64,000 nucleotides of DNA, from contig OZ037766.1 in the NCBI GenBank assembly GCA_964035545.1, forward strand, positions 9,042,722-9,106,721, read 5' to 3'. This document shows, one piece after another, positions 12,943 to 64,000 of the stretch. Position numbers and translations under genes: made by a program. The notes below the pieces were generated by a model. The model did no database searches. It saw only the letters and a program-made list of their open reading frames with translations, and was not told the DNA's origin. Numbering within the stretch: position 1 is the stretch's first letter; the number at the start of each line of letters is the position of its first letter. The DNA is from Bugula neritina (taxonomy: Eukaryota > Animalia > Bryozoa).

Positions 12943-13183
<241 letters not shown>

Positions 13184-39329: not shown

Positions 39330-40338
39330 CTGATCTGCTGTATATCATACATGGCTAGCGGCTGCAGTGGCAATGTCACGTGAAGCATATAAAACTTACA
39401 GACTAGAAAGTTAGGCACTGAATTCTTTGAAATACTTTTCCCGTTTGATATTTCTTAAGTTTTTAGCTGCCTAGCATTTTCTTTACTATTACAGAGCTTT
39501 AGATTTCCTTTTTCAAACCAACATGATGTTTTGTATTACTGTAAAAATATTTTTTATGTAAAAACAGATATACCCTGAAGATGCATAATGAAATTGAGAG
39601 TACATTTGCCGCTCTATATTGTTATTTGTTTTTTCTGATGCACATTTATTTATGCTAGAAAGATTTAGCAGATTTGTAAGTTTTCTAGTAGCAGAAGGTG
39701 GCAAATGACCTTATAACAACAAACAATATTATAATTTAATAAAGGACATTCCTGGTATTTTTCTTATTATTGTTACATTAATAATGTATGTACATTTACA
39801 TTGCACTAACTATAGACTGATAAGTTTTGGGCAAACAACCAGGTTTGACTTTGTATGTTCCAAATAATGGTATCATTAATTTTGTACTCTTATAAATCGC
39901 TCTTATAAATAAAAAAATTTATAGCACTGCTCAATAAACGTTGCTGCTCTTTATCTGCTAAAAGCAGTACATAGTAGAAAATATTCACGTTTATTTTTTT
40001 AATAAAAAATAAATATAGTGGACCAGATAAAACTTTTGATGAGCTCACAAACTTAATCGTTGGGTTTAACATCAAGTTTACTTATTTGATTCCCAAGAAT
40101 ATAAAGTTAAGGTAGATATAAACATACTTAGATGAAAACTTTGAAAATCGCTAAACGCAGCATAAAGTTTGGGGCCGGTGTGGAGTTCAGTGAATGATGT
40201 GGCTACTGGCTATATACATTATAATATAAACACTGCACCTAGTGACCCCAAACCTTGTGCTAAATTTAGCGATCTCCAAAATCTTTGCTAAGTCAACTTG
40301 CATTACACATGCAGAGCTGAGTAGCTTAGAAAAAGGTG

Positions 40339-43300
40339 TTAGTCGACATTGAGTCTTTTGAATGTACCAGTGACACCACCAACAGCATCAGCCTGTTTCT
40401 TGCTGTCACCAGAAACTGCCTCTACTTTCTTTATACCGTACTGTTCCCACGATTTAAATTCATCTTCACTAGCCTCCATAAGCTTGGCTACATCCTATTG
40501 TAACAAAACTTGAAACTATTATAATTATTGTAGTCTAAGTGTTGTCTCTAAAATTCCAGAGCTTGTGGAAAAATTTAAGATTTTGCCACTATTCATTGCA
40601 AATTGTATAAAGTTCCAACATTAGAAATTCAATTTCTCCTATGTGAGCAAGTATTAAAATAGTCAATTATAGTTTGACAAGATTTCATGGCTTGCAAATA
40701 TTCCTTAGATTGACAACTATCTGTTAGTATTCCCATCCCTTATTTGGGAATCCTATAACTCCAAGATCTAAATATTTTTATTTCTTGAGTGCTCATAATT
40801 GCTAATGGTAAAGAGTAATCCTTAAAATAATAATAACGATTTTCAACTGACATTGAAATGTAAAAACAGCCCTTACTTTGACATGAGGTTCGACATCAAG
40901 TTCTCCACCAAGTTCTTTTGGAATGATTTTTAGATCAAAATGATCTTTTAAGTATTCTGATGTAGAATGTATGTGAATCTAAAAATATAGTTTAATTGTA
41001 GTGTAACAATCATTGTTTCTGAAAATTTTCTTCATTTGACATTAACTACTTTGTGTGAACATAACAAAAACTGCTTAGGGTATTTTAAAGTTGTTAAACT
41101 CTTTTCACCAGGCAAGGCGCTATTATTATCATATATAAGCAAACTGATGCATTTATAACACTAGTATTTTACCAAAAATTTAATCAATTTTGAAATTGTT
41201 CACACATTTTTCCAATAACAATATTTATTTAAATTGTATCTAAGGTGGGACTACAAAATAATTAATTGTACACCAATAGAAGTTAATAAAACAGTGAAAC
41301 ACTATTCACATTTTAAATTTGAGCCTAATTAAAACATCACAACCGTAAAGCCCTTTGAGATGTATGTAAAAATAACTGCAAAATGTTTTAGTGCAGCAAC
41401 TCAATTGAAGTTAATTTAGAATTAACTAGTAAAAAACTCACCCTACTTTTTAGCTTTTCTGATAAAAATGGCTTTATCATTGCAAAAACATATTCAAAGA
41501 AACTTGGCACATTGATGTAGTGTATCCCCTTCAGTCTGCAGGGCATCGCTTGCTGCAACAAAAATGTACAAAATTGAGTTTTCAGCTCTAGCTTATAAAC
41601 TCTTCAGGCTGAATATTTATTTTGCTATATATGCTAATAAATAACAATGCTCTCATGGATAAATTAAATATAAATGTATATTATTTCAGCTATAACTCAA
41701 AACAATATGTAAATATGGTTATAGGCCTATATCTAACCCAATTGTTGTATATAATGTAATGGCTACAGAGATAATGATAGCTGCAAGAAAACATTATTTT
41801 GAAATTATGTTACAATGTTAAAATTAGCATAAAAGTAATATCCTTAAGGACCAAATTGCTGCTCTATTTAAGTATGTATACAAAAACATAGTAAATGTGA
41901 TACTAATCATACCTGTATAATCGATGTTGCTTTTTTAGCGATAAATGGGCTTAAACTTTTGACATGATTCCAAGTAAGATTTGACATGTCTGCCAGAATC
42001 ACCAAACCATTTACCTGATTTTCTTCTCGCTGTTTGCAAATATTGAAATATATTACATAAGCAACATTATAGACTTATAATGTTGAAGTGTTTTGCAAAT
42101 AGGTCTATGTTTATATACTTCATAAGATTATGATTGTTTCAAAAGCTTGTATGTTAACAAGAAAATAAATAGGCCTATGAAAATAAGGATACAAAAACTA
42201 TTTCTATACATATTTTTAACAAAATTATAACAAAAAACGATATGAAGATAATGAGCGTATAACTTTAGTTAGATGTTAAGTATAAAACTGTTTTATGCGC
42301 GTTTATAAATTATAGAGTGTCTTTTGTGTTAATTGAATATAATCAACCTACCCGAACCATTTTTTCAATTATCATTATGTTTCCTTTAAACAGATCATCA
42401 ATTGTAGCAGAAGTAGGGTCCCACATGGCTGCAATGCAAAAAGTCTAAGGTCAAATGGTTTAAATTCTAATAAAGGGAAAGCTTTATAAAATAATGTCAT
42501 TGGCTTAATAACTTTTTTGCCCTATTAACAATGCAAGCAAGATATTTTATTATAAAATAACTGCTCAATGCTTAGAAGTGAAATTTAAATTCCCTCCATG
42601 TAAACACACTTCTATCTAACTGCCTATAAACTATTAAATGAAAACAAATTGTATTTGTAACTTTTTTCTTGTAAGAGTGCTGGCATGTGCATACACAAAT
42701 ATCTGCATTACAAATTACTTTACTAAACAGTAACTGTTCACCTGTAACTAATGTGATTTTTGTTGCCTGCTCTTTATTTTATGGTAGAAACAGAAATTTG
42801 TGGAAAAATAAAGCATGCATGCAATACACTGACACTGCAGGACAGAAAAATTAGAAATCAGACACTATTATGTTTCTCTCTGAATGTTCAAAATTCCCAT
42901 TAAAGGAAAAATTCTTCCCTGGCTAGTAACCCCTGCTGTAGCGTATCTGACATACTATAACTGATATATTTAAGAAACCGCACCAGGTGACCCGTGTGGC
43001 TATAAACCATAGAGCCAGCATATTTGGTGGGGTCAACCATATAAAGCTACCTGCATGCATTGTGTTTGATTGAAAATTCTGTGCATTTGCGTAGGCAAGG
43101 CGGGTAGCAACTCGCTCAATAGAGTGAGCTAGAAGACTATAAGTTTTTATTTTTTTGCTACAAAATTATTTTGCCAAGTTAATAATTTATATATGTTAAA
43201 CTTTTAGAAAATACAGTATTAAACATAATATAGATAGTTCCTCTGTGGTAGTACCTACATTGTCTCACTGTGTATGGAATCTACCTGTTCTTATCAGGAT

Positions 43301-44673
43301 AGCTTGTGGATCTGTCTCTTTTACCTTTGGTAATGGAATATAAAGACCTTTCTCATAATTCTCTTTGCTAGATGAAGGCCGAAACATCTTGTAGAAGTCT
43401 GCATATTCCACTCTGACTTCATAGTATCTAGTTTAAGATGTAGTGTGTGAGAAGCTTTCAGATTTCATATGAGAAGAGTGTTAGGTTTAAAAACTCATCC
43501 ACGTAAAAGTTTTTACAAATAGTTTTAGGAGTCTTTCAGCAGCGTTTAGTAACTGATTATTTTAATACCTAGAGTAGAGTATAGAAGACTTTAGGACATA
43601 TGAGTTTACCCCAATACCTACTTTGAAAACTAATAATGGAATATTTCTTAGCTATAGTACATATTGTATTACAAGTTAATAGACTCAAACACTTGAAGTC
43701 ATGGCTGTACATCAAAACAGATTGATATATTGTTTTATATTTCACCAACTTATGTACACAATACAAATAAAAGCATAAATGTGTGTGCAGTCTGTGAAAA
43801 ATAAATATATTTTCTAGTTTTACCTGTGCACAAGACTAGCTGCTCTCTCAATATCAAATTTTCTAGCTCTCAAAAACATTAACAAAAATTCATCATCTTG
43901 AGGGCAGTGAAGAGCTGCAAGTACAACAATATTTGACTGGGGAAGTTAGAAATATGTAAAAAGCTGCTAATGCCAATAAAACAACTGCCGATTATATTAG
44001 AGGATTGAGCTTCATGACAACTTTGGCAGCTTTAGAAAATCCCTCAGCACTTGTTTGCAGCTTTCAAGGTAGTCAACTTAAACTTCAAACCAACAAAACA
44101 AACGACTCCAAAAAATAAAAGATCACCTCAACTACCAAGGCACATTCATACATAGTGTTGAAATATACTATAGCAAAATGAGTATAGGTAATTTCCTCTT
44201 TGTTCAAAGTCATTAATTCTAAAGTAGTTTGGGTTGTTTAATTCCAGGATTTAAAGTTAAACTGTTTTGTTTTGCTACAAGGACTGATAGAACTAATTCT
44301 ATTTAGACACCTTGCTCATTCTCCACAAAATTTAGTGATAGTACAAGTTTTTAGCCTGCTTATTTCAGTGAACTCTTATTTGTAAAAAAGATCTTAGGAG
44401 AGTTTTTATTTTGTAAGACTGGAAATGCATGCTATTTCAAGTTTTAAATGCAAGCGTGAACAACTGCCTTATTCATGCCGTTGAATCCTGGGAAGCTACT
44501 GCCCAAGCAAGCATTGCAATATGCTAAATGTGGAAGCAACTATTGTAAACATTCTTACCTAAATCTGATTCGAGACACTTTCTCAGTTTAGAAATATGTT
44601 TTGGCCGGTCTTCCAAATCTTCTTGAAGCTCTTCTTTTGCCTTCTTTTGAAGTGCCTGGCTAAGTGAGGTCAT
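40339..44673 (-). CDS. CRAL-TRIO lipid-transfer protein (alpha-tocopherol transfer protein-like/clavesin family), copy A, 8 exons (44673-44559, 43914-43824, 43427-43285, 42428-42352, 42029-41913, 41552-41442, 40978-40877, 40494-40339), 303 aa
   Basis: KKAKEEL.E, DDEFLLMFLRARKFD, QVNGLVILADM, MPCRLKGIHYIN, KPFLSEKLKSRIHIH, IIPKELGG and C-terminal GTFKRLNVD; intact frame. Confidence 0.94.
42920..43135 (+). mobile_element. Possible short non-autonomous rolling-circle (Helitron/Helentron-like) insertion in intron 3 of copy A
   Basis: GC-richer segment not seen in the paralogous intron of copy B. It ends CGGGTA..stem-loop CTCGCTC-AATA-GAGTGAG then CTAG (43111-43132). The 5' end is not defined. 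Confidence 0.3.
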
Positions 44674-45675
44674 GTTGAATAGACTAAGCAGTACAGCTGT
44701 TAGACTAGCTAGTAACAGGGTGGCATGCAGTTGCACAATACCTTATTGTTTGCATTTGATAACAAGAGCAAACATTTCTACACAATGTGCAAAGATAAAT
44801 TATCATGTAACACACGAACACTTGTTCACTGCAACCTGTGTGTAGAATAGTATTATATGGAGCATAATAAACCCTATATAATCTTTATTGCTGCAAATTT
44901 AGTAAAAAGTATGCTGTGATGTACTTAAGCTTTACAGCTCCCACACAGAAAGCGGAAGCTATACTGCATTTTGCTCAAAATTAGTTATTTATTGCAGTAC
45001 ATAATATATTATCTTTTACTACAACATGATAACAAATAAATAAGTTCACTATTGGAATTTATTCCTTTTCAACAAACAGGGGATAAGTAAAAATTATATA
45101 GATACTCAATTTTACCAAACAATCTCCACTTTCCTTGTGTCACAGAAGTTGTTATAAAAATTAATGAAGATCAAAGTATAAAAACATAACACAAGCAGAA
45201 CATGGACGGCATTCGTTAAAAATTGAGTATATATAGTAAAAATATAATTGTTAATTTTGTTATTATATTAAACATTTACTCATAATCTATGAAATTTAAT
45301 GAAGTGTATTAAGTTACTTTGCCAGTCAGTTTGCTAAAAAACTTAGTAAAATGATTTTTTTTTTAGTTTGGATTATTAAGTTGTGTGTAATTAAAAAAAA
45401 CCTTTATGTAAAAACCTCATACTCTGTTCAATAATCACAGGGATTCCTTAGTTTAATGGCTTTGAGCAGTTCAAAGGTATCGTAAAACAGAACTCCTTTA
45501 AGTTTGGTATTACCACACTTCTAGGACTGCTGTCTTGCATTTAGATAATAGAATAACTGAGTGTGTTGACACAAACTAGCACTTCATAGTGAACCGAAAC
45601 GAGTCATAAGCAGCATTGTTAATTCAGCAGCATAAGCTGGAATGTTTATAGATATAGATTCTAAGCTTCCTAGCA

Positions 45676-45808
45676 CTAATCAGTTTCTTGAATGTTCCAG
45701 GAATTTCTCCATCAGCATCACCTTGTTAATGGCTATTATCAGCAACTGTCTATTTAATGTCATGTCTCTCTCAAGATGTAAATTAAATTATCAACTCATT
45801 AGCCCAAT
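45676..45808 (-). pseudogene. Decayed copy of the last exon of CRAL-TRIO copy C (homology continues through 3' UTR-derived sequence to about 45100)
   Basis: GTTGCTGATAATAGCCAT..GGAACATTCAAGAAACT aligns with 53003-53158 but has in-frame stops and deletions; 45420-45680 aligns with 52755-53005. Confidence 0.88.
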
Positions 45809-46151
45809 AATAATGCGCTATATATAGAATGTCATGTGACAGGAAGATAATGCAGCAGCATGCGACTGTATCTGCGGCCAGACATGCCTAAAGTAGCTGG
45901 AGATGGTGACTCATGCCAATGACTGGTAACTGACAATTAGTGACTCTCTTCTGTCCTTCATTTTTAACTGGGTAGCACCAGGAATTAACACAAAATTCAA
46001 ATTTCACCCGGCCATACATTACAATACTACCTGAACAAATAATTTTGATTACAGCAATTAATATGACTCAAATCAAAATTTGAAAAGAAAATTAAAAACT
46101 TGAGTGTATTGAAATTTCTCATCTACTACTTCAAATGAGTTGTAGAAGGTA

Positions 46152-48800
46152 TTAGTCGACATTGAGTCTTTTGAATATACCAGTCACACCACCAGCAGCA
46201 TCAGCATGCTTTTTGCTGTCACCAGAAACTGTCTCTACTTTCTTTATACCGTACTGTTCCCAAGATATAAATTCATCTTCACTAGCCTCCATAAGCTTGG
46301 CTACATCCTATTGGTATTATAAAAAACAAACTTGAAATCATTAAACTTCTTGTAAAAGTGTTTTTAAAATGCTAGAGTTTAAAGTAAAAACTTTTTTTTA
46401 CTTCTGAAAATTTGGTACAATATCAACTTCAGGTGCTTAATTTTTCTAAAGCATGTAAACTGTCAGAACAATTTCACTGCCTTGCAAATTCCTCCAGTTT
46501 TTAGTCAGCTAAATATTATTATTGCCCGATCTCTTATTTCGAAATCTTATAGTCTTTCAAGTTCTAAACAGTTAATAGTGAACTTTTTGATTGATACTAA
46601 TTTCGAATGATAAACTATAGGCCTTATAACAGCTTTACTTAAAGCTTTAACTGACTATAAAAAGTAAAAAGGTAGCCCTTACTTTGGCATGAGGTTCGAT
46701 ATCAAGTTCTCCACCAAGTTCTTTAGGAAGAATTTTTAGATCAAAATATTCTTTTAAGTATTCTGGTGTAGAATGTAGGTGAATCTAAAAGTATGATTTT
46801 CTAACATGACAACTGTTTAAAACATGATATTTTTGACGTTGACTACTTTAAGTAAAAATTGAAAACTACAAAAACGGCTCATTGCCTATTAGTTGTGTAA
46901 CATTTTGTCACTATGCAAAGCAACATTAAAACTATAAGCAACCTATTAATTACGAAGGCTTTATTCAAATTGCATCCATAATATTGTTGGGACTTTACAT
47001 AAGTTGGGAAAGCTTTTCCCTAATTCATGATAGGTTTGCATGTATCATCACAGCTATGCCAGCTATATTATGCTTTTTCCACACTCATTATGGTTACTAC
47101 ACAATAGCTTAACTTTTTGACAGGTATAACCCCCAGCATTTTCACCTATCTGCACACTTGCATCTTACAACTTGACACTTGAAACTACATGATGTAACGG
47201 TTTCACATTGCTACTTTCTTTCAGTCTGCGACAATAAATATTTCTATATAATTTAAAACACAACACATATAAGATTATACAATTTTTAATCAACGCTAAT
47301 AGAAGTTTCTAGAATAACACAATACTATTTACATGTTAAATTCAAATTTGACTTCGGTAACAGAGCATCATAATATTATTTAACATAAAGGCACAAGAAA
47401 ATTGTGACACGTGATAGTTAAGGTCTATTTTAGAAATTTAAAAAAAACTTACCCGTTTTCTTAGTTTTTCTGAGAGAAATGGTTTTGCTATTGCAAAAAC
47501 ATATTCAAAAAAGTGAGGCACATTGACGTAATGTACTTCTTTCAGTCTGCATGGCATTGCTTGCTGCAACAAGAATACAATTAAAATTTCTGCTCTTAAA
47601 AAAACTATTTAAAAATGAACTTTCACTAAGCTATGTGTTAATGTAGTAAATACTTTCAAACGCTAAAATATTTCATTATCATGTAATATACTTATACTAT
47701 ATACTTATTATATATGTTGTATATATTACTTACTGACTTCAGAGATAATGATTATATCTGCTAGCAAACATATATTACAACATGTTTAAATTCGTGTAAA
47801 AGCATTAATCATGCAAATATGGCTAAAGTGTTGATTTTCTTTCAGATGTATGTATAAACATAGTAGACATAATGCAATCCATACCTGTATCACCGATGCT
47901 ATCCTTTTAGCAGCAAATGGGTTAAAACTTTTAACATGATTCCAAGTAAGATTTGATAAGTCTGTCAGAAACACAAAACCATTTATCTGATTTTCTTCTT
48001 GCTGTACACAAAGAGGTAAATAAACTATTATAGTCAATATATTTCCAAAATCGTCAATACGCACACAGTACCTTCAACAGAAGTTTAAATAAAAAGAATG
48101 CACTATAGAAATGATAAACTAAAAGGCATATAGTTTTAGCCTTTTTGCAAAAAATTTTAAGCATGAAACATTTTTTATGTATATGCTTATAAATTATAGA
48201 GTATTTTTTGAGGTAAATAGATATAAACTACCTACCCTAACCATCTTTTCCATCATCATCATCATGCTTCCTCTAAACATGTCATCAACTGTAGTCGTAG
48301 CAGTGTCCCACAAGGCTGCAGTACAAAAAGATGGGGTTTAAATTCTAATAAATGAAAAGCTTTATGGAATAGTAAAGCGAGAAAGTTTTATTGAAAGCGA
48401 AAATAATTGATCTCATCAAATTAAAAATGAGCTAAAATTACGCTTTATAGCCCCATATATTCACTTATAAGATTACATTTCCATTATAAAGAATTTCCAA
48501 CACTCCATATTTATGTATCATTTAAATATTCATATACATCTTAATTCTTAGCTACTATCTAAAGGCTGTTGGAGGATTGTATACCCAAACACATTTGTTT
48601 TATAATAAATTTTGTGACCGCGAGTCCTGAATTATTTGGATTTCAGACTTTCAGTGACTAAGCCATGTGCTCCTGCAGAAGCCAATAACAGCAGCAATGG
48701 CAATGAAAGTTAGCCATATAAATAAGTATCAGTTTTATAATACCCTATACAATCAGAACCTATTGGAAATGTCATCTAATAAATATAATATAGATATCTG

Positions 48801-48849
<49 letters not shown>

Positions 48850-51221
48850 GTGTGTTGTGTGTTGTGTGTTGTGTGTGTGTGAGTGTTGTGTGTTGTGTGT
48901 TGTGTGTGTGAGTGTTGTGTGTTGTGTGTTGTGTGTGTTGGTACATGTACATGGAATCTACCTGCTCTTATCAGGATAGCTTGTGGATCTGTCTCTTTTA
49001 CCTTTGGTAATGAAATATAAAGACCTTTCTCATAATTCTCTTTGCTAAATGAAGGCCGAAACCTCTTGTAGAAGTCGGCAAATTCCACTCTGACTTCATA
49101 GTATCTAGTTTAATATGAAGCTTGTTGACTAAAATTCTCTTCACATAAAATTTCTTTACACATAACGATAGACCGTCTATTTCTTGTTTGTGCATAACTT
49201 GTGTGAGCAGCTATCAAATTTTATATATAGAAATGTTGTTCAAATTCATATTTATGCCTATTTAGCCTGTTTTTAGGTTGCTTTAGTATCTAATTACTTG
49301 ATATACTAGGTAAATATTATTAAGTTTATAGACTCTAGTAAATATGCGCTGACCACAGTGCTTTAAAAACTAAAATAGTTATTGATCATAATACAAGCAT
49401 TGCTTTGGAGCTAAAGCTATTGTATTACTTTCCAAAGAACTGAATTACTTTTATCCAGGGGTTAACTTTTAAACAGACCAAGTATGATGTTGGAGATTAC
49501 CTTTGCATCAATTAACACACACAATACAGATTAACAGCATAAATAGTATGTTGTTGAAATTATAGACCTTGCTTAGTTTTACCTTCGAATAAGAGTAGTT
49601 GTTCTCTCAATATCAAACTTTCTAGCTCTCAAAAACATCAACAAAAAATCATCATCTCGCGGGCAGTGAAGTGCTGCAAATATAACAATATTTGACTAAT
49701 ATGAAATAGTTGGGTAAAAAACGTGCATCTGTTTTAAAGTTTTTCTCCTGTGAAGACCCTTGTCCTGTTATTAAGCAGACTAAGAACTTTGCCCCTCCCC
49801 ATGGAGATTTGACTTGTGGGACAGAAGCAATTATTGTAACTGCAACACCATTGATTGAGAGAGCACTGGTACAAATGGAAATCTATTTCCATTAATAATT
49901 ACTGTTTTAGTAACTCTCACCTCCTTAATGGTGAAGCCATACACTTGGGAGGAAAGATAACTGGAAGGAATACTTTGGAGGAAAAAATAAACTTTTACTA
50001 ATTCTTAGAGTTTAGACTGCTGTAACTCACTGACTAAGCTTATAGTATTGGCGTTTCTACATTATGAAATGGCTTTAAGTAGTATAACCAAGGCCCCACT
50101 ACCAAGCCTATTTAACTGTGCAGACATAGCTTTGGTAGTGACAGGCTTATCAAAGACCCCAAACAAAACTCTAAGGCTTAGAGGCTTGAGAAAGGGCCTT
50201 CAGTTGTAGTTGTAAAGAGACATTCCTCAGTATAAGATATGTGTTTGGTGCATTTTACTTTATAATAAAGCACTGTGCCTTATTACAAAGTAAAATGCAC
50301 CAAACACACATATGTACTGAGACATGTCTCTTTACAACTACAACCGAAGGCCCTTTTCTGGTATCACAAACGACCTTGTAAAAACTTAAATTCATGACCT
50401 ATACCATATTAGGCCAGCAGCCCAGCACTCTAATCACTAAACTCTAAACAGTAGCTGCTGCATCTATGAAAACAGTGAGAAATATTTGAAAAGCTGCTGA
50501 TGCTTAAGCCAATAAAAGTTGCCAGTTTTCTGGCAGCTTTAAGTAATGTAACAAGCAACTTTGGCAGCTTAAAAATGCATCATTTCAGTACTTACTTGCA
50601 GCTTTCAAAATAATCAACTTGAACTTCAAACCAACTCCAAAAAATAAAAGATCACAAAACTTGCCAATTAACATTAAATTTTATACATGGTTATATGTTA
50701 AGATACTAGGCTAATTATTACTATATAGTTGCATATGCACTCATTTTATGCTGCATGAATAATTGTACAGAATGTTATATTAGTTTAAACTCTCTAAAGA
50801 CATTAATTTTTAATTAACGTGAGGTTTTACTTTTTGATTTGATGTTTATGGTTGAAGCCTAACTGCTTTGTTTTGATGCAAAATATATTGATAGAACTAA
50901 TGCTATATGAAAGTTCTGGTGCAAAGCCTGTTTGTTGCAATGGGTTCCAATTTGTAAAATGAATCTTAGGAAAGCTTATAATTGAAAGACTGTTTCAAGT
51001 TTTAAATGCAAAGATGAACAACTGCCTTATTTATGCTGTTGAATACTGGCAAGCTACTGCACAAGCAAGCATTGCAATATGCTAAATGTGGAAGCAACAT
51101 TCTTACCTAAATCTGATTCCAGAGACTTTCTCATTTTAGAAATATGCTTTTGCCGGTTTTCCACATCTTCATGGAGCTCTTCTTTTGCCTTCTTTTGAAG
51201 TGCCTGGCTAAGTGAGGTCAT
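46152..51221 (-). CDS. CRAL-TRIO lipid-transfer protein, copy B, 8 exons (51221-51107, 49673-49583, 49104-48962, 48315-48236, 48001-47885, 47563-47453, 46784-46683, 46307-46152), 304 aa
   Basis: Same exon sizes and phases as copy A except for +3 nt in exon 4; high nucleotide similarity to A, including intron flanks; intact frame. Confidence 0.94.
48803..48938. repeat. Compound (GT)n / (GTGTGTT)n microsatellite in intron 3 of copy B
   Basis: Visible. Confidence 0.95.
50190..50358. mobile_element. About 168-bp near-perfect palindrome (fold-back/MITE-like) inside an insertion of about 770 bp in intron 1 of copy B
   Basis: AAAGGGCCTTCAGTTGTAGTTGTAAAGAGACAT...TGTGTTTGGTGCATTTTACTTT pairs with AAAGTAAAATGCACCAAACACA...ATGTCTCTTTACAACTACAACCGAAGGCCCTTT; centre GCAC-T-GTGC at about 50274. 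Confidence 0.75.
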
Positions 51222-53002
51222 GTTGAGTAGACTGAGCAGTGACCAACCACACAGTACAGCTGTTAGCCTAGCTAATAACAGGGTAGCATGCAGTTGCACA
51301 ATACTTTATTGTTAACAAACATCTCTTAACAATACATATTTTTATCACATTACTTACAGCTCACCTATTTCCCATGTATTGATCTTGCTGGATATTTGTA
51401 TTCCAGATTTTTTTGTTAGCTAGTTGTGTAGTTGCCTTCTCTGTGAAGGCTGCATATTCTTGAAAAATGAGCAATATTTATAGACCAAAATTATATTCTG
51501 TGTAGGACAAATTAGCTATTTATTTTAAAACAATAGATAACTCATAAATTGCATAAGGTGCAGCGCCATTGATACACCAAAAGACTACAATTATATGCCC
51601 TTGCCCTTCCAACAAAACAACTCTGTTTAATCTTACAGAATAAATTTACAGTGAACACAAATCTATAATTTCTAGCTAAGCAGCTCATCTGCAATTCTAT
51701 AAGGAAATAGCTGCTCAAAACAATCCATTAATGAACTATATTTATAAGTCATTTGCCTTTGGGTGCAACTTTAAAGCACTGCATTTAGTAAATTCCTAAT
51801 GTTGTAACTTGTAATACATTTTTATACCAGGTGGTAAATCTTGTTGGAAGAAATAAAAAATACTGAAAGCACCAGTAGAAATTGATTCTGCTGGAAAGCA
51901 GTGTGATGTTTTGTTACATGCACTGCGTTTCCATGACTGCTGCGAATGGATGCTCATACCAAATAATTTGCAGTTTGTATCAACTTATGGTTTCATTGAT
52001 AGTAACTGTTCCCACACATCTAATAAAAACTCCAATCGTATAATGGAAACGCAGTGTAAATAACTCGATGTAAGTATTCTACCTGCTGATGGGAGAGTGG
52101 AGACAGGTTAATGTGTAATGATAAGTTAGCAGCCAACACATTTGAACTATGACCTATGGTTGTCTAGCAGTGTTGACTAAACATGGGACACTATTACTAT
52201 TATGGTACTTTATTAAAGAGCATGTAGTGGCATAAAAGCACTTAAATTAAAAAAAAGAAACCTCAAAATTAAAACTGAACATCACAGACACTAAATTTGG
52301 TCTAGACTAATTAGAAAAATGCAAAAAAAAATACATATGATCTAAATTTAATGGTTTTGAAGAAATATCTCATAAGCAAGCAATGTAGAAAATAGTAAAC
52401 TTTGCAAAAATGTTTCCAATTTTGCATGTGTCACAGTTGTTATTGTAAAAAGTAATAGAGATAAAAGTACTAAGACATAAAACACAGACAAATAGAGTGC
52501 ATATAAGAGATTCTTGAAAATGTGAGTATCTTATCATATAATATTATAAAATAACTGTTAGTTTTTTGGCCCAAAAATTGGACACTACTTGCTATAAAAT
52601 AAACATTTGTGAGACCGAAATAAATTGAGTAATCTAGTCAGTTTTTTTGCTAAAAGGTTTGATAAAAATGGTTTGATTTGAAGCTCTAAAATTAATTACT
52701 TGGTCCACTAAATTATGTGTAGTTAGAAAACAAAACCTTCAAGTATAAAAGTCGTACTCTGTATAATAATCACAAGAATTCTTAGTTTAATCGTCTCAAC
52801 AGTTCAATGGTATTGAAAAACAGAAGTCCTTTTAGTTTGGTATAGCCACATTTCTAGGACTGCTGGCTTGCATTTAGGTAATAGAATAACTGAGTGTATT
52901 GACACAAACTAGCACTTCTTAGTGATCAAAACTTGTCCTAAGCAGCATTGTTAATTCAGCATAACTTGGAATGTTAGATATAGATTCTAAGACTTCCTAG
53001 AA

Positions 53003-56000
53003 CTAATCACAGTTGAGTTTCTTGAATGTTCCGGTAATTCCTCCGGCGGCATCAGCTTGTTTATGGCTATTATCAGCAACAGCCTCTACTCGCTTGATAC
53101 CGTATCTCTCCCGAGATATAAACTCATCTTCACTATTTGCCATCTCCTCAGCCCAACTCTGCATCGAAATAATACCTCGATTGATTTCTTAGTTATAAAT
53201 AAAATGTTTTATAGAATTCACAATAAGCATCTTATCCATTGTGCATCCAGCTTATAATGAGCCCAATTCGGTGAGACTACACAGCTGTTTCAGCTTGAAG
53301 GAACCATTAAAATTACAGATTATTAAAAAAATTGAGCTTATTTTCATTGAACAACTAAAACGGCAGAGACATCAGAAGAAAACTTTTTAAACTCTAAAGC
53401 TTGTCAATCCGTGGATTTTAGTAGTTCACCCTATCAGTTAATACAAATTAACACTATTTGAATATTTAGTCAACTCTTGGGCAGTTTCTATAAACTCCAA
53501 AACATTCATAGAAAAGTATGGACGAATTGTTATGAGCTGTCCTACATATTATTATACTAGACACTTGCTATTAACTAAGGTAATATTGACAGCTACCTTG
53601 ACATAAGGCTCAGTAACAAGAGTGCCCCCTAGGCTCTCTGGCAGCATATCAACACTAAAGTGCTCCTTCAAGTACTCAGGTGATGAGTGAATGTGTATCT
53701 GCAATATAAAATACAGCGTGTCTATATTATCTAAAACTGTTATGTAACATGGTGCAGGTGGTGCATACCCTTACATTGAGTTACACAAGTTACTTCAAAA
53801 CCTTGCAAATGATAGCAATTGCTGAGCATCTACACATGTCATATATGACTTTTAGGATATTATACAATCGAAGAAAATGTGTACTGCAGCTGTAAGTGCT
53901 CTTACGGTTAACATACACTGCAGCACTACAGGTGTCTTACAAAAAAAGAATTTTTTTAAAGCATGTCATGCATAACGTATGAAAGATCAAAACACTTCTA
54001 ACTTACTCTGCTTTTCAGTTTGTCAGACATAAACTGCTTGACCATGGCAAACACATATTCAAAGAAATGAGGTACATTGACATAGTGTATTCCCTTAACT
54101 CTGCAAGGCATGGCATGCTGTAAAACACATCAATGCTTAGTATAATCATAGAAATGAGGGGTAATATATGTAATATAGCTCAATCACCTCAACTTGATAG
54201 AGTTATAAAGATGGCTATCAATTTTGAACCTATTAATATTATGTTAATCTATATACATCAGAGAGATTAATTTCAATCAGACAAAGAATTAAGTGATGTA
54301 GGATGTTGCATGATTTGTTTTCAAAAATAATCTTACTGTATGATTTATCAAAATTTGTCTTTAAACAATATTTTTATGACCTTGTTAAATATTGAGTTAT
54401 TGCAAAAACGATTCGGGCAAACAGTCAGCTCTTGTTAGTTTCTATCAAGTTTACATTTTTGTGAGGTGACCAAAAATGGAATATCTTGAAACAGTTGTTA
54501 TTATAAGTCAACATAACTTTAAAATGCAGTGTTGAAATAAAATAATCAAGTTAATTTTGAGCATCAAAGCCACAATTAATACTGCTCAACAAATGCATAT
54601 TAAAAAAGAGTAGAATTGATTAGGACACCAACCTGCAAGATAGCCATAGTGCGTTTAGCAATAAATGGATTCATACTCTTAGCATGAGCCCAGGTGAGTT
54701 GGTTTACATCCATAAGCATCACTATCCCATTCACCTGCACCTCTTCACTCTAGCAAATGAAATGTCAGCCTTAATATTCATAAACCTTTCGAATTACAAA
54801 TACTTTGAACATTAGGAAACACTGCGAACAGATTTTCCTGTTGATGGGTACACTGAACTCTGTGTATATAGAACCATAAAATAAATCCCATTTTACTACA
54901 AACTTATATTATCAATTTTACAGTATAACTTTTCAGCCCAAATCAGGCGTTATTTTATTGGATAATTCTTAGAATGAAACTGCATGTGTATTTGAAGATT
55001 AGAAGATTATATGAAATTTTAAATGCAAAATTGTAAGTCTTTACCCGGATTACTTTCTCGACCTGCATAATGTTTGCTCTGATTACATCATCAAGGCCAC
55101 CAGTACTTGGATCCCAGAGAGCTGAAAATAACAACACATGTATTTTACTGAAACAAACAATCATACTAGCTACACTTGTATGACAGTAAAAAAAATTGAA
55201 TTATTTTTAAAGTTACCACTATTAACAAAATAAATGCATGTATAAAAAATTATCTAAATAACACAAAAAGGAAAAAGTGAAAAATTGAAATAAAAGCTAT
55301 ACATGATAATCTACAGCAAATATTAAACTTATTATAACTATTTACATCTTTAAGAAGTAGCTGATTTGAAAGTAATTCTAGCAAAAACATGATTTAATTG
55401 AAATTACAATGATACACGCACATCTCTTTAATGTTTAAAAATGATGCTTCATCGACTTTAAAGTTGAATATTCACATTTTTGCTTTTATACCTGAACTCA
55501 AACTAAACAGCCATATGTGAGTAATAATATAATACCTAGCCTAACCAGCAACGGCACAGGATCAGTTTCTTTTGACTTGGGCAACTTAAGGTACATTCCC
55601 TTTTCATATTTTTCTTTTGCAAACGACGGGCGATACTTTTTGTAAAAATCTGGGTATTCTATTCTGACCTCATAATATCTAGAGAAATTGAAGAATAAAT
55701 TATTATTTCAACCTTGAAACAGGGCACATCATCTTCATGCATATGAAACAGCAAACTCACAAAAACTGATTGTTTACAACCAACAATAGCACAACATTAA
55801 ACCTCAAAACCAAATATACCTTCTAACGAGCTTGGCAGCATTTTCATAGTCAAACTTACGAGCTCTCAAAAACATCAATAGGAAGTTATCGTCTTCAAGG
55901 GGACAGTGCAAAGCTACAATTATACTATATATTATGAAGTTGAATGAAAGTAAATGCTGGTTTATATAAATTTAATGCCACCAACAATGATGCAGATAAA

Positions 56001-56315
56001 CAGCTGGAAAATAACCACCTTATAAATAACAATATGCTAAATATCTGCATTGAATTGAAGATGCAAAATAAGTTTTGTTTTGTACTTTGGTAACACAGTG
56101 TATGTTCTTTTTACAGCTGTCAGCCATTGCATACTTGCATATGTTAGTGAAATGAATATTTATATGTACAATCTATAGATGTTTATAAAATAGATTTTAC
56201 CCAAATCTGACTTCAACAGGTCCCGCAATGCTTGAATGTCTCGATCTCTCCATTCCACTTTTTCACCTAGCTCATTTTTAGCCTTTTCTTGCAAGGCTTC
56301 ACTTAAGCTAGACAT
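53003..56315 (-). CDS. CRAL-TRIO lipid-transfer protein, copy C (most divergent), 8 exons (56315-56201, 55913-55820, 55678-55536, 55121-55045, 54749-54633, 54117-54007, 53698-53597, 53158-53003), 304 aa
   Basis: EKAKNELGEKVEWRDRDIQALR, DDNFLLMFLRARKFDYE, QVNGIVMLMD, MPCRVKGIHYVN, MLPESLGG and GTFKKLNCD; same intron positions as A and B. Confidence 0.94.
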
Positions 56316-56629
56316 ACCTGCCTTATTACGCAACTATTTTATCTAGAACAAATCAGTTCAGGATACAAGTTTAAAAGTACTGTACTTAGTAGTACAGCAT
56401 GGTAAGTCTCCCATTAAACTTTCAAAGATATAAGTAATACATTTATGTTCTTTGTTCCTGACATATATTAGTGAAGTATCTTGACCAATAGAATTTGTGC
56501 GCAATACTGTTGCCTGATGGAATAGTTATAGTGCTTTAAACCACATGTCTATGTCAGCAGGCTTTATGACTATTGCTGAAAATTTAGCTACAAGTCTAAA
56601 AACAGCTCAACGGATCAAATTTAATAATA

Positions 56630-57480
56630 TTAAATACATATATATTAGAGATAAGTATTACATTTACTGTACTACTATTAGTATTAGTATAAGTATATCT
56701 ATTTTCACATTGACTAAGTTTTAGAATAACTTATAATAATAATGATAAATATAAGTAAAGTTATATGATAAGTATACATTATAATAACATTAACAGTAAC
56801 ATTACTATTAGAAATAATAAATTAAATATAAATAATAATCATAATATTAATATGAAATCAGAAAGGCCCTCGACCGAGGTACACTTACACACTGACAACT
56901 GTAATACTTCAAAGTCTTTATAGTTCATACCGATAATGATAGCAAGCATAATAATATTAATAATATCATTAGACCTAGTAATAGACATATTTATAGTGAT
57001 AGTATAACTATAAGTTAAGTATAAGTAATAGTAATACTAAAAGTAATAGTAATAACAATAAGTAACACTAACAGTAACACTAATGACTAATAGTAATACT
57101 AATAGTAATACTAATACTCATTACAGTAATACTAATAGAACAATAGTAATACTATTAGTATTACTATTAGTATTAGTAATACTAATACTAATAGTAATAG
57201 TGATAGTAATACTTATAGTTATACCAATACAGTAAGGCTAAGTCTAAGAGTAATACTAATACTCTAAGACTAACACTAAGTCTAACAGTAACACAGTATC
57301 AGTATGACTATGAGTAATACTAATACTAATAATATTACTATTAGACATTAGTATTACTAAATTACTATAAGTATTACTGTAAGTGTAAGTGTAATAGACT
57401 AACAGTTATAGTAATAGTAATACTAATATTATTAATATTACTCTATAAGTGTTACTACTATTAGTATTACCATTAAATTT
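56630..57480. repeat. Degenerate hexamer-periodic quasi-palindromic tract 2 (5' region of CRAL-TRIO copy C)
   Basis: AGTAAT AGTAAT ACTAAA AGTAAT AGTAAT, AGTAAC ACTAAC AGTAAC ACTAAT, and inverted ACTATT AGTATT runs. Confidence 0.88.
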
Positions 57481-57484
57481 AATA

Positions 57485-57750
57485 GGCTTGCCCAGTTCAG
57501 TGATATTGCGCACGTAATAATTAAAATTAACGGGCCACTGACTTTGGCCTCGACCGTCTAACCTGGTGATCTCAGCTAGCGGTGATAGGTGCTGAGAGAA
57601 CAGTTTAGCAGGTTATAAGTTGTTGAATTTATATTGGATATAATTATCAACGGTAACGGTAAAAATACCTACAGTGTGTTAGCTTTGTCTCCTAAGTTAG
57701 CGCGCGTTAATATTGCATGGATGCCATCCGTGGTTAGGAACAGGCGTAAT
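57485..57750. promoter_or_regulatory. Putative bidirectional CpG-enriched promoter between divergent CRAL-TRIO copy C (-) and SIVA1 (+)
   Basis: About 270-bp GC/CpG-rich island (TGCGCACG, CGGGCC, TCGACCG, GCGCGCG, ATTGG box) roughly midway between two head-to-head start codons, each preceded by a candidate splice acceptor. Confidence 0.6.
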
Positions 57751-58600
57751 ATTTTAATTATAACACTAACAGTAACTGTAAGTCAGTGGTAGTATATGTA
57801 AGTGATTATGATTAGGATGATCGTAAAGTTAAAGATCTTTATAATCATGATGATATTAATTGAAATTGTAATAATTGTTATCTATAAGTATAACTAATAA
57901 CATTAAATATAATTATAAGTAATACTAATAAGTAATAAAGTATAATTTAAACTATAACTATAAGTATAACTATAAGTCATAAGTGATTACTATAACTATA
58001 AGTATAAATATTAAATAACTTAGTATTACTATTAGTATTAGTATAACGTTAACTATAAGATTAAGTATAAGAATAAGTATAAGACTAAGTAAATAACTAT
58101 AAGTGTAACTCATAAGTTCAATTTGAGCTAATGCTAATAGTAATACTAATAGTAATAGTAATACTAATAGTATAACTATAAGATTAAGTACTATTAGTAA
58201 TACTGAGTATTAGTATTACTGTATTACTATTAGTACTATAACTCTAAGACTAAGTCTATAACAATAACTATAAGTATAACTATAAGATTAAGTATAATAA
58301 TAAATATAAGTAAGTAAATGTATTAATGTAATTTTATTATTTATCTTAAATTTAATTGAAATATTGAATTTAATATTGGTATTTAAATTAGTGTTAGGTA
58401 CTGTTACGCTGTGACACATGCTCATACCATAGTGAGTTATATTAATCTCAAATTTATGTGGACTATCACTATGTATTGAGTTTTACTTTTACTGATATTC
58501 ATAAATCATGACATAAGCATAATGATGATGTAAAGGGCAAACTCTAGCACTAAAAGTAACTGTTAAAAATCAAACTAAGCATACGTTATTGATAGATGTT
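57750..58600. repeat. Degenerate hexamer-periodic quasi-palindromic tract 3 (5' region of SIVA1)
   Basis: AGTAAT ACTAAT AGTAAT AGTAAT ACTAAT AGTATA ACTATA AGATTA from 58139; ACTATA/AGTATA runs. Confidence 0.88.
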
Positions 58601-59118
58601 ATAGTTTTCTAATATTGTACTCTTAAATTTGAAAGTTACATGTTGAAAGTTTCAAGTCTCACACACAGGTTCCATATGCATTTTAGTTATTATGGGAAAT
58701 AGCTTAAATAGGTGTTGGTTTTTCTCTGGTTGTACATAGATTTAATTTCTGCAGTTTTTTATGTTGCTATAGGTTAAGGAAAGGGCTTCATTTTTTTTAA
58801 TTCTTTGGGGAAAGTTAGCAAAGTAGCCAATGCCTGTGTTCCTTTCTTTTATTCTGCAGGTGCATCAATTCCATCACTATTTGATCTTCAAAGACAACAC
58901 ATATTTAATTACTAATCGACACAAACTTGTATACCATTCCAATTTTGTGTAACTGCTGCAACTATAATTTTAATTATACCAGCATATGAACTGCAAATTG
59001 CTCCATATTTGTAGATTTGTTTTAGATTCTCCTTCAAAGTTTTGTGATATTTGAGGCTACAATTTTCCTTTGAATATAGCTTTGAGCTGAAAAATCTTCA
59101 ATACTTCCTTACTCCAAT

Positions 59119-61036
59119 ATGCCAAAAAGAAGTTGTCCTTTTGCCGAAAGCCATGCACCACAAATGAAGAATCACATTGGCTTAAAGGAGATTAATTTAG
59201 GTGTGACGAGTCATGAAAGAATGGAGGAAGTATATGGTAATTTCAGTCTACTTTAACTTAATTTATAATTTATAAACTGTGTCTTTGTTTTTGAAAATTA
59301 ATTCAAATTTTGATATAAATTATGTTTACATATATTTTTAGATAGAACACTGAAACTGCTTTATGACGGTGCCCGAAAGGAAAATTCATGTCCACAAACC
59401 CCTACAACTTACCCTGTCATTGTTCAAAAGCTGAATGTTCTTCCTGGCCAGCGTAAATTGAATTTTTATGGACAACTAGATGGCTGCTATACATCTAACC
59501 AGTGTGAGCTATTGCTTATAAATTTGTTGATAAAATTATTTTTGTGATCGAATTTAGGAGTCGTTCTCTATTTTCAGTGTCAAAACTGTGAAATTACAAT
59601 AAAAATAAATGAAATCTGAAGTATCACCACATTGCATAATGCTACAGTATGTTGGGCACTTTTGGAACATAAAGTTTTTTATATGTCACGACTTTCTTTA
59701 AAAAGCTTTTATATCAATTAGTGTAGCATAATTGCAGATTGAAGATTTTCAACAATAGATGATTTAAAGTTAAGCATGAATTCCAACATTAACAGTGTGA
59801 TTAAGAGATATGCCATTCCTACTGTGTACCAAATTGATTTTTTAGTAAAATTATGTTTTTATAGGTAAATCTCAGAAGAAATTTTTGCCGATAGCCTGCA
59901 GTTCGTGCCAGAGTATTCCATCTGTACCATCAACATGTCATTTCTGTGAGAAATGTTTATGTGAGATGTGTAGCCGTCTGTGCAGTGACTGCAACTACTC
60001 ATTCTGCTCAGACTGCTCCAGTCCCAGGTTTGTTATTTTTAATTTGTCATGTTCATGCTTTATCTCAAACCTTTTTTTGAATGCTGCAAATGTCCCACTT
60101 TTGTGATGAAACCAATATCCTAAACATTGACTAATGTAACTGCATATTATTATTTTTGCACAGTGTTTCTGACCCTGCAAAATATCCAGGGTTCATTATC
60201 TCATTACTAAAACCAGTAACCACCAAAAGTGATCGTGGTTTTTGCTGTACCTTTTTATATAGACAAACCTCAATTTCATTCAGTAATATATCAATAATAT
60301 GCAGCTACATAATCTAATATTTAGTATGTTGATTTCATCACAAAAACTGAGCCATTTGCAGCAGTAAAGCAAAGACTGGAGATGGTTCTTAAAATCGGCT
60401 TATTTTTATTGTCTGATCAGTTTAGGAATTATGTATTATACAAGTAAACAAGCACATTTTCTCACAGTTTTTCCTATCGGTCAAATTCGCAAGCACAGTG
60501 AAAAACTTTTCTCTGATTCTATTAAACAAAAATTTGTCATTTACGGAAATGTCTATTTTATTCATGCTGAAATGTATCACTGTGCTTTTTTTCTATGCTA
60601 TCCTTTTCACGAAACTGTTTCTATGCTGATAGACCTTCATCAGACAAGAAGCAGGCGTTTAGTGAGCCTAAAATACATATGGTTGCATTAATTCTAGTTT
60701 TTAGGCACTTGAGTCAGTAATTTTCTAGCCACCATTAGAATATATAAAACTTAGTTGCAATAAGGATCGGAGTTATCCACTTTTTATAATAATATATTGA
60801 TTTAGTAATTATGTTACCTTGGTGTACTTTTTGTTGCTTTGCATCAAATATGACTTGGAATATTCTTAGTTCTTACATCTTACTATTTGATACTAATATT
60901 ATGTTAGCTGTGTCGCTCAACCCATTATCATACATTCATTTTAATATTTGTGTAAGCATTATAACATTATATATAAATGTTTTGTAGATATGAATCTCAT
61001 GATGTGGAGAAATCTATATGCCTAAGCTGCATATGA
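59119..61036 (+). CDS. SIVA1: Apoptosis regulatory protein Siva, 4 exons (59119-59236, 59342-59503, 59865-60027, 60988-61036)
   Basis: N-terminus MPKRSCPFAE..QMK.HIG..E..EEVYDRTLKLLYDGA matches the Siva MPKRSCPF signature; C-terminal Cys-rich zinc fingers CSSC..CHFCEKCLCEMC..CSDC..FCSDC..ICLSC; phases consistent. Confidence 0.93.
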
Positions 61037-61629
61037 TGCAATCACTTGGAGCAAAAACTTTCAACTCAGTAAATAATTCTAGTCATTTCAGTAGTAAAGA
61101 TTTTTTCCAAGCGCTTCATTTATAGTACAGTCTTCATTTCATAAATCACCGATTTTTTTCAAAGAAATTCTGGAAAACTTTTTAAAAGCCATTTTATGTA
61201 TTTCTTTTTCTTGTTTTATCACCTTTCCATATTTTATTGACACTTGTACACGTGTATATTTTTGAAATTGGTGTAACAAAATGTTTTTGGTTTATTCCCC
61301 GGTTAATAAACAATTTTATATAAATCATTTCAATTTTTAAATTCCACCACATTTGTTGAGTGATCATTATTAATATACTTAAAACATAGAGTTTCATACT
61401 TTCACTTTTGTTGCTCTTACTTTTACTTCTAATAAATTCCACTTTCTTTCAGACATTTACTTTAATACTTTAATATGGCGATTGAAAAACACTGCAACCC
61501 ATTAAAAATAAAATAAAGATATGTCATGATTTGTTAAATACAAGTCATAATATTAGTGAAAGAATTACAATTAACAAAAGTTCACAAATCAACAGGACTC
61601 CAGTTATTTCAACTTGTTTTCTTGCACGA

Positions 61630-61885
61630 AATGTGGGGTTATCCTATCCCCAGTATTTTATAATCGCGCCGATAAATCTCTGAGTGTGCTTTTATTGGAT
61701 AACAACTTTTCGATTGCAATCGAAACTTTTTCATTTCCATTGTGTTCCCACTCATCGACCACACTTTCATTTTCAGGGATTCATATCTTTTATAATAAAT
61801 TTAATGCTCGTAAATGATGAATCTTGTGATAAAAAGCGATGCATATTGCAATTAATGCTATTCTTATAGACTGGATAATCTAATA
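61630..61885 (+). promoter_or_regulatory. Putative CpG-enriched promoter of the DDX46-like gene with a perfect 18-bp palindrome TTTCGATTGCAATCGAAA (61708-61725)
   Basis: ATCGCGCCGAT, ATTGG box and several CpGs between the SIVA1 3' end and the first coding exon. Confidence 0.55.
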
Positions 61886-62660
61886 GTGGTAGTTATAGTA
61901 ATATAAATATATAATTTTTACTTATAGTTATACTTATACTTATACTTATAGTTATAGTTATACTAATACTTTAAGTTTAACTTTAACTTAGTCTTATAGT
62001 TCGGTTATACTTATAGTTAATGTTATAGTTATACAATTATACTTATAGTTATACTTATTTAGTTTTATATTTACGTTTAGCTTTAGTTTTACAATTACAT
62101 TACGCTTACAGGATTACTGATTACTCATTAGACTTACTCTTAGTCATTGGTGATTAGTCATTAATATCACTTACACTTACAGTAACTCACAGTATAACTG
62201 TGAGTATTGTGTTTAGTCATTATGATTATTCATTATTGTTAGAGTTACTACTAGTAGTAGTACTAGTACTAAACCTAGTCATAGTGATAGTGGCTAATAA
62301 TTGCTCTATAATTAAGTTATACTTATACTTTATAGTTATAGAATCTTATAGTTATAGAGTAACTACTTACAGTTAGTGTTACACAATGACTATAAGTATA
62401 AGTATAATAATAAGTTTAATAAAATTTAATTTTATTGTTATTAATTTTAATTATATGTATATAGTTATATTTATTGTAACATCGACAATATATTAATTAT
62501 AATATAAATATAATACTAATACTAATAATTATACTATAACTAAGAGTGAGTAGTAGTAGTAGTAGTATTTGACTTAGTAATTACACGTACTAATTAATAT
62601 TATGATAATGATTATTATTTATTTATTATCATTATCTTACATAAATATGATTAGATCAGC
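61885..62660. repeat. Degenerate hexamer-periodic quasi-palindromic tract 4 (5' region of the DDX46-like gene)
   Basis: Eleven in-phase units from 61920: ACTTAT AGTTAT ACTTAT ACTTAT ACTTAT AGTTAT AGTTAT ACTAAT ACTTTA AGTTTA ACTTTA. Confidence 0.88.
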
Positions 62661-63214
62661 ATTTAAACTTAACATCAAATGTTGCAAAAGAATTAATACA
62701 AATGACAATATGCATACAGCTCTTTTCACTACTATTATTTAAAATTTTACTCAGTTTAATGATAGCATAAAATCTATGCTCTACCAGTTTTAATTTAAAT
62801 TTTAAAACTTTTCTCTGTTTCAACATAGTGATACTGGGCATTCTGAAGTAAAGCTAACTGCCATTCACATTCATAATTTCATTGTTATAGCTGATATTTA
62901 TAATCGTGGTTCCTAGTAGTAGAACTGATGTTAATATTTTATTATACCCAAACTTGAAATATAAATTTTACTTGAAAATAAGATTAAAGGTTGAGTTGTA
63001 CTGCAACTTGTAGTAGCAGAGAAATAAAGCTGTAGTAAACTTAGTAGTACTGGATTTGAAATAAATTCATGCTGCAATAGTATTGGCAGTAGCAGAAGTA
63101 TTGGTCTATTCTATGGTCTAGGTCAAAGATGTTATATTATGTTAATTTTTCATTGCCATTTGTAGAAAAAGAACTTTAAGTTTAAGGTTATAGTCAGCAA
63201 GTCATCAACTTAAC

Positions 63215-64000
63215 ATGCCCAGAGAAAGCAGGTAATGATTATTGCATAGTTATACTAGTTAATGTTTTGACTTGTGCATATTAATAAGAGTATGCTTTGA
63301 AGGATATGCAAGTTTAAGCATTTATACATTTCTAACAGACCCAGTAATTAATCAAAATTGAGGTTTTTGAAATTTTACTAAAACGCTTTATATTTATGCA
63401 ACCTGTAATATTATATTTTTATTACAATCGCCAACTCATTTCATGACGGTTAACTTGAATTTATAAGCCATAATAGAAAGTTTATTAAATGATATTTTAT
63501 GATAATACATTGCAATATAGTTTGTTTTGTCAACTGTCTTGTTCAGATGCTTACTGTGTGTTACCTGACTTTACTAGCTCAAAATGTTTTCAGATCCTAC
63601 AGAAAGAGAAGCAGGAGTCGATCAAAGTCTTCTGATCGAAAAGATGATAAAAAGACTTCTCGTCGGTCAAGATCCAGAGATCGTAAATATCGAAAACGAT
63701 CTCGCAGTCGAGATCGAAGGCGCTCAAGGTCTAGAGATAGGAAAAGGGCTAGGTCAAGAGACCGTAAGAGAAGTCGATCTGGAGATCGTAAAGAAAGGTG
63801 AAATCTGTAATGTTTTCATTGTACATAGCAGGTTGTTAATGTTAGCAAGACAATTTTTTGATTTCTTTTATTCGTTTGTTAATTCATCTCTCTGTTACAT
63901 TTTTTAACTTTGTTTTTAAATTTCATATGATTGCAGTCGCAGTAAGCGGAAGTCACGATCTCGTAGCAGGGAGAAAGATAAAAAAGAAGATAAAAGATTA
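63215..64000 (+). CDS. DDX46: RS-domain N-terminus of a probable DEAD-box splicing helicase DDX46/Prp5 (exons 63215-63231, 63594-63797, 63937->64000); continues beyond the window
   Basis: The spliced start MPRESR|SYRKRSRSRS resembles the DDX46 N-terminus MGRESRHYRKRS and is followed by RSRSRDR repeats and a KEDK-rich segment. The helicase core is not in the window, so another RS protein is not excluded. Confidence 0.72.

Follow-up and report, generated by a model that had tools for sequence, protein, structure and literature searches.

The stretch of Bugula neritina DNA analysed here (64 kb, hereafter the window; 32% GC, CpG observed/expected ratio (O/E) 0.39) contains a short CpG-rich core between SIVA1, on the plus strand, and copy A of a CRAL-TRIO gene, on the minus strand. 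Both gene names given in the initial annotation were borne out by Pfam, with CRAL_TRIO_N at 55804–55971 (minus strand), in the next exon of CRAL-TRIO A, and Siva at 59086–59256 (plus strand). On either side of the core lies a tract of degenerate repeats with a 6-bp period. The features of the locus are:

56202–56342, minus strand: first coding exon of CRAL-TRIO copy A (ATG at 56315; acceptor AG at 56344–56343; RNA contigs X2, X5 and X7)
56651–57482, unstranded: left period-6 tract, predicted CRAL-TRIO A intron 1 (831 bp; A[CG]T-locked part 56958–57466)
56855–56915, unstranded: GC islet interrupting the left tract (its 9-mer at 56868–56876 is identical to core positions 57548–57556)
57485–57750, unstranded: CpG-rich promoter core, likely bidirectional (CpG content and RNA contigs)
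57563–57590, minus strand: predicted 3' end of the non-coding exon 1 of CRAL-TRIO A (donor at 57562; donor score)
57658–57777, plus strand: non-coding exon 1 of SIVA1 (begins at 57658 or earlier; most likely donor 57778, with 57772 as the alternative; X7 and X2 contigs and donor score)
57745–58320, unstranded: right period-6 tract, start of SIVA1 intron 1 (575 bp; weak tail to ~58580)
59080–59236, plus strand: first coding exon of SIVA1 (ATG at 59119; Pfam Siva, E 4.9e-09; RNA contigs)

The core measures 266 bp, with a GC content of 0.43, 13 CpG and an O/E of 1.09 against 0.39 for the window, in agreement with the GC/CpG core of about 270 bp described initially; only 0.31% of 3187 equal-size windows within the 64 kb reach 13 or more CpG. 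Internally, it consists of two GC lobes around an AT-rich middle at ~57600–57650. CpG is thus retained locally in a CpG-depleted genome, which suggests that the core may be unmethylated in a methylated genome; the accessible part of PMC12695648 reports that methylated invertebrate genes lose CpG. No flip of GC skew across the core was seen at gene scale (−0.09 and −0.02). The core is not a multicopy element: it had no self-matches in the window, its flanks are not common to the other tracts described below and, among the matches listed, no RNA contig falls on its part 57528–57633, whereas many unrelated contigs match the tracts.

Exon structure was taken from RNA contigs of a related Bugula lineage, possibly a sister, that differ by ~1–7% from the window and whose RNA status was judged from splicing. 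A contig of run X7 (record 10, depth 45.9) joins 57658–57743 to 59081 with 18 letters in between, 15 of which match 57751–57765 of the window. A contig of X2, from the same study (record 3), covers 57658–57765 with five letters missing at 57746, and SIVA1 contigs from two further studies extend 27 and 23 letters beyond 59081 on the 5' side. The X7 splice, a joint seen in one contig of one study, from a lineage 3–7% different and in material that cannot show starts, therefore places SIVA1 exon 1 in the right-hand part of the core, which it fills; intron 1 then begins with the right tract. A donor had been proposed at GC/GTAATA near 57746; this was not supported, as the exon of the related lineage continues past that point and lacks the five letters there. 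Beyond this point, GT next occurs in the window at 57772 and 57778, and the second of these sites has a donor score of 7/9. On the simplest reading, the mRNA of the related lineage is 6 or 12 letters shorter at the inner edge, hence by a whole number of hexamers. The predicted SIVA1 5' UTR (57717–57777 and 59080) contains two upstream ATGs, of 6 and 20 codons, which the deletion in the relative would alter. A homologue search with the SIVA1 exon returned no match, and a metagenome scan with a word from it returned 0 loci.

On the CRAL-TRIO side, the X2, X5 and X7 contigs align to 56201–56344, with 21, 12 and 26 extra 5' letters beyond this placement, and all three alignments end at 56344, which is the acceptor AG. 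The first coding exon aligns at 58% with the N-termini of the paralogues. Two minus-strand donors score 7/9 in 56345–57800, and only the one at 57562 is preceded by AG, as the end of the RNA alignment suggests. Exon 1 of CRAL-TRIO A is accordingly predicted from donor scores in the left half of the core, ~60–100 bp from the SIVA1 exon. The lack of listed RNA matches on core part 57528–57633 is uninformative on this exon.

Since SIVA1 exon 1 lies inside it, the core can be regarded as a promoter region, as had been claimed, and it is likely a CpG promoter shared by SIVA1 and the oppositely transcribed CRAL-TRIO A. Taken on its own, the architecture, a core with divergent genes and separate flanking tracts, is highly probable, and the head-to-head promoter itself is ordinary.

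CRAL-TRIO A belongs to three tandem paralogues on the minus strand (40300–44750, 46100–51310 and 53000–56344). Copies B and C have in common ~90 bp upstream of the ATG as well as intron sequence, both absent from A, and A alone faces a CpG core; the copies may therefore be divided into broad and tissue-specific promoters. We also observed that the region of the CRAL-TRIO 3' end is present once more, at 83% identity, between copies B and C (45401–45746 and 52736–53080).

Both focal tracts are ~80% AT and consist mostly of A[CG]T repeated every 6 bp. Pairs of A[CG]T exactly 6 bp apart number 51 on the left and 30 on the right, compared with 7.7 ± 2.4 and 5.0 ± 2.2 across 300 dinucleotide shuffles, which never exceed 16 and 12, and the right-hand tail to ~58580 adds 4 pairs against 0.4 expected. 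C and G alternate in 33/51 and 23/30 of these pairs, giving a 12-bp unit. TRF resolves the tracts into blocks of period 6/12/18 arrays with a 67–86% match, whose units change from block to block, and phase shifts within the tracts are frequent. Two tracts of ~850 bp with sharp inner and fading outer edges had been described: both are present far above chance, albeit with unequal lengths (831 and 575 bp), the inner edges are indeed sharp and the right outer edge fades, while on the left the outer boundary is rather abrupt (~56660).

The two tracts share vocabulary (k-mer likeness 0.48 direct and 0.35 inverted), and their best blastn match is in direct orientation (171 nt at 72%). The best inverted arms span 52 nt (87% identity) and 62 nt (73%) and are internal, so that the tracts do not form a long inverted repeat; in both respects the initial annotation was correct. 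Its symmetric architecture does not extend to mirrored sequence, both tracts being A-rich on the plus strand. The 9-mer common to the core and to the ~60-bp GC islet of the left tract has only these two occurrences in the whole window. The islet also holds a minus-strand donor-like word, and it is possibly a second promoter-factor site or an alternative exon.

We next asked where else such sequence occurs. A whole-window scan for lag-6 excess returned 8 segments: the two focal tracts, 13.6–14.5 kb, 61.8–62.7 kb, two weak pieces at 15.3–15.55 kb, an (AC)n run and a 23-mer minisatellite. The two further tracts are:

13733–14510, unstranded: UBE2O comparison tract, downstream of the CpG core at 13200–13560 and upstream of the UBE2O coding exons (plus strand)
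61868–62634, unstranded: comparison tract of an RS-rich gene, downstream of the CpG core at 61600–61850 and upstream of its coding exons (plus strand)

The RS-rich gene, which we take to resemble DDX46, has GT..AG joints at 63228–63591 and 63795–63935 in RNA contigs. CpG O/E is 0.94 in the UBE2O core and 1.21 in the RS-rich-gene core, and no tract was found on the far side of either. At the ASNS core (10500–10750, O/E 0.82; gene on the minus strand), the first intron has no tract (2 pairs, 1.2 expected). Upstream of CRAL-TRIO B and C (O/E 0.11 and 0.21) and of the plus-strand P0001 gene (O/E 0.49), there is neither a CpG core nor a tract. Tracts are therefore found at three of four CpG-rich non-coding cores picked in the window, of which the SIVA1/CRAL-TRIO core is the only one with two, as had been claimed. 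The proposed link between tract position and direction of transcription also held: all four tracts lie on the transcribed side, a rule counted in one 64-kb window, with RNA showing it for one tract and gene direction indicating it for three (the left focal tract and those of UBE2O and the RS-rich gene).

Because two genes leave one core, the symmetry is most plausibly explained by a one-sided feature downstream of promoters that is present here twice, back to back. Since the ASNS core lacks a tract, such a feature is not needed for a CpG promoter. A motif search common to the cores yielded just short words present in two or three of them. In a search for a divergent gene at either the ASNS or the UBE2O core, 12 ORFs in 11.2–12.7 kb gave 0 Pfam matches; small plus-strand exons are possible near 11330–11600 in the ASNS region, also without a Pfam match. 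The B. neritina protein EB796_022288 showed 93% identity over 54% of a single-exon query, with exons matching the window at up to 100%.

The four tracts are similar in length (575–831 bp), and C/G alternation at the other two reaches 21/42 and 21/36. The 8-mer cosine between unlinked tracts is 0.32–0.62 for three and 0.14–0.19 for the fourth, compared with a background of at most 0.12. Other repeats in the window, with periods of 2, 5, 16, 20 and 23, are located elsewhere: pentamer AT satellites and 16-, 20- and 23-mer minisatellites occupy other introns (22349–22479, 36055–36313, 3665–3814, 28123–28544 and 31728–31970), and a perfect (AC)118 run (12946–13182) stands directly upstream of the UBE2O CpG core. 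Faint, GC-richer period-6 stretches at 15284–15552 and 62870–63110 lie farther along the same first introns, as if the period-6 grammar faded with distance from the start.

When the four tracts were pooled, 318 of 672 G/C bases stood as A-S-T, and 24.6% of G/C spacings were exactly 6, against 4.2% in the background. Autocorrelation peaks at lags 6, 12 and 18 (1.8–2.5 at lag 6), with lag-10 values of 0.92, 0.94, 0.84 and 1.24. Runs of A4+/T4+ are depleted (3.6, 0, 8.0 and 10.2 per kb versus 21.6 in the background), and ApT is not enriched (O/E 0.86–1.0). Four of the five least stable 500-bp duplex windows fall on tracts, the UBE2O tract ranking eighth. Tracts occur in both orientations, with a sense strand that is T-rich in two, A-rich in one and even in one; the lack of a strand rule therefore fits a reading at the DNA level.

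Three candidate properties were rejected. A protein-coding reading yielded just sub-threshold Pfam matches to a hydrophobic frame, and splicing removes the right tract. Hairpins kept by selection were dismissed as well: folding gave z −6.76 on the left and −1.03 on the right, and the hairpin counts (6 and 1) equal those of unit shuffles (6.1 and 1.4). Finally, no strand logic of polyadenylation signals or U1 sites was seen in the tracts.

Tract words are common in the Bugula transcriptome: among the matches listed, 94 and 130 contig records fall on 56150–59300, mostly on the tracts, and 73–77% of them continue into unlike sequence. When genomes and viruses were scanned with a tract motif made of five units of a single word, at least 156 prokaryote or viral loci matched. 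Among the 156 matches listed, the median periodic extent is 93 bp, one reaches 400 bp, and 146 lack C/G alternation; a metagenome scan with a tract motif gave 0 loci. As these matches are short, pure microsatellites, the long mixed tracts are not a generic slippage product. Pontibacter is conspicuously frequent among the listed GTDB hexamer microsatellites (L003, L007, L011, L017, L023, L026 and others). A bacterial MAG contig and three IMG/VR contigs (L068, L133, L138 and L141) have in common a near-identical region that bears no relation to the window and contains an alternating 12-bp repeat with ~36-bp repeats after it.

To account for these observations, we tentatively favour, at a little under even confidence, a CpG core with SIVA1 exon 1 and likely CRAL-TRIO exon 1, in which each tract would be a separate promoter-downstream copy and likely a double-stranded chromatin signal. 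Slippage in steps of 6 and 12 bp, together with local inversions, would make the tracts grow and turn over. Across the first three to five nucleosomes, selection would retain a grammar in which A[CG]T recurs at 6-bp intervals and A/T runs are scarce. The tract would both offer many weak sites to a protein that reads repeats and serve as easily unwound DNA that helps broadly active promoters stay open. Selection is favoured because four unlinked sites share period, length and, in part, vocabulary, and other introns of the same genes do not. Against a signal stand the sequence turnover, the ASNS core without a tract, hairpins no more frequent than in unit shuffles and the unflipped GC skew, as well as the unit differences between blocks and the frequent phase shifts, which fit neutral slippage.

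A neutral origin is in fact a serious contender, nearly as likely as the chromatin signal. With the same architecture, the tracts could be a by-product of underwound DNA behind germline-active starts, where slippage and template switching would drive the sequence towards a small set of AT-rich hexamers; protection would be limited to the core and exon 1, which would explain the sharp inner edge. Block-wise units with phase shifts and local inversions, the hexamer-sized step between lineages, hairpins at the level of unit shuffles and the ASNS core without a tract all agree with it, and it explains blocks, turnover and the ASNS exception as well as a signal does. Unrelated prokaryotes, too, have developed microsatellites of one of the units, and the accessible part of a preprint offers a precedent in C. 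elegans repeats remodelled in a transcription-coupled manner (10.64898/2026.08.08.743475). However, one period with overlapping 8-mers at four unlinked sites, absent from other introns of the same genes, would call for a very specific bias, and A/T runs, usually favoured by slippage, are depleted in the tracts.

Descent from a promoter-seeking transposon is improbable. The tracts would then be relics of a Mutator/MITE or Helitron satellite with decayed ends, or the whole locus would be one foldback element, in keeping with the vocabulary common to the loci, with the many unrelated RNA contigs that carry tract-like pieces and with precedents in the accessible parts of reports on placozoans (PMC12221973) and nematodes (10.64898/2026.08.08.743475). 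Yet flank and core alignments are at chance (scores 19–29; random median 22, 95th percentile 28.6), the outer ends carry no inverted repeats (scores 40 and 23, where controls have a median of 28 and reach 49), the core contains a host exon, and no coding relic was found. Terminal inverted repeats of the Mutator, MITE or foldback kind were not observed, the four tracts have no termini or internal sequence in common, and no Helitron link was seen. An action in RNA, through arrays of 5'-splice-site-like or branch-point-like words or through avoidance of early polyadenylation, is very improbable: the first-intron location, the presence of donor-consensus words and the depletion of sense-strand AATAAA/ATTAAA (5 versus 16.5) would suit it, but the antisense strand is depleted alike (9 versus 22.0), donor-like sites are neither consistently denser than background nor strand-biased, and sense composition varies among the four tracts.

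Head-to-head CpG-island-like promoters have a short CpG-retaining core, divergent genes and non-coding first exons. The Bugula locus resembles them in its core, its divergent genes and its non-coding first exon, the second such exon being predicted, and differs in that its core has just 43% GC over 266 bp. Short tandem repeats in promoters and first introns, for instance GAGA, are slippage-prone, lie near starts without a fixed orientation and possibly act as weak binding arrays; unlike them, the Bugula tracts are much longer (0.6–0.8 kb), combine mixed units under one six-base grammar and occupy the downstream side only.

Other parallels come from more distant systems, each considered from the accessible part of the cited text. 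Like C. elegans PATCs, the tracts are non-coding, periodic, AT-rich intronic DNA of active genes with a distributed property (PMC4947018), and a preprint derives PATCs from repeats via transcription-coupled mutation (10.64898/2026.08.08.743475). An intronic position in an active gene is evident for SIVA1 and probable for the other three tracts. In contrast to PATCs, which are 10-bp periodic An/Tn clusters, the four tracts show neither 10-bp AA/TT periodicity nor An/Tn clusters; they have period 6, are depleted in A/T runs and begin at the promoter edge. The GP1 promoter-hub motif in placozoan 'Mutator TIRs' is likewise a lineage-specific repeat, found at some of the active housekeeping promoters of a compact animal genome (PMC12221973), although in another phylum; TIRs were not seen at the Bugula tracts, whose outer edges are diffuse and AT-rich. 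The repeating placozoan words are ACGG and ACAGT, the latter containing AGT (PMC12817080). The ApT 6mA domain also lies just downstream of active starts and looks two-sided at head-to-head genes; it is a base modification, whereas the tracts are a sequence feature without ApT enrichment, and the AMT1 pathway is lost in animals (PMC12695648).

In the literature, mostly outside subscription papers, we found no description of such bryozoan tracts or of a 6-bp periodic first-intron element, and this class of tract appears undescribed so far. To our knowledge, bryozoan gene regulation is almost unstudied. The B. neritina genome has 214 Mb, 35.26% GC and 25.9% repeats (PMC7576161); the accessible part of that paper mentions neither simple or low-complexity repeats nor introns, and that of PMC13326412 mentions no low complexity, introns, promoters or methylation. 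Bugula and bryozoans are likewise unmentioned in the accessible part of the preprint on PATCs (10.64898/2026.08.08.743475).

A sequence-encoded, orientation-free period-6 element over the first nucleosomes might mark a large class of broadly active Bugula promoters, where a lineage-specific repeat-binding protein would keep the CpG core open or tether these promoters into hubs; it would then be the spiralian counterpart of PATCs and placozoan hub motifs, written in a different code. We regard this combined proposal as speculative and rather unlikely. If the pattern is true genome-wide, annotation would gain a simple marker, readable from sequence, that shows where transcription starts and in which direction it runs. 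Along with nematode PATCs and the hub motifs of placozoans, constitutive genes would then provide three independent cases of periodic non-coding DNA. A period of 6 rather than 10 would separate models of protein reading or unwinding from those of curvature, and if the tracts are neutral, they would record a start-linked mutational process.
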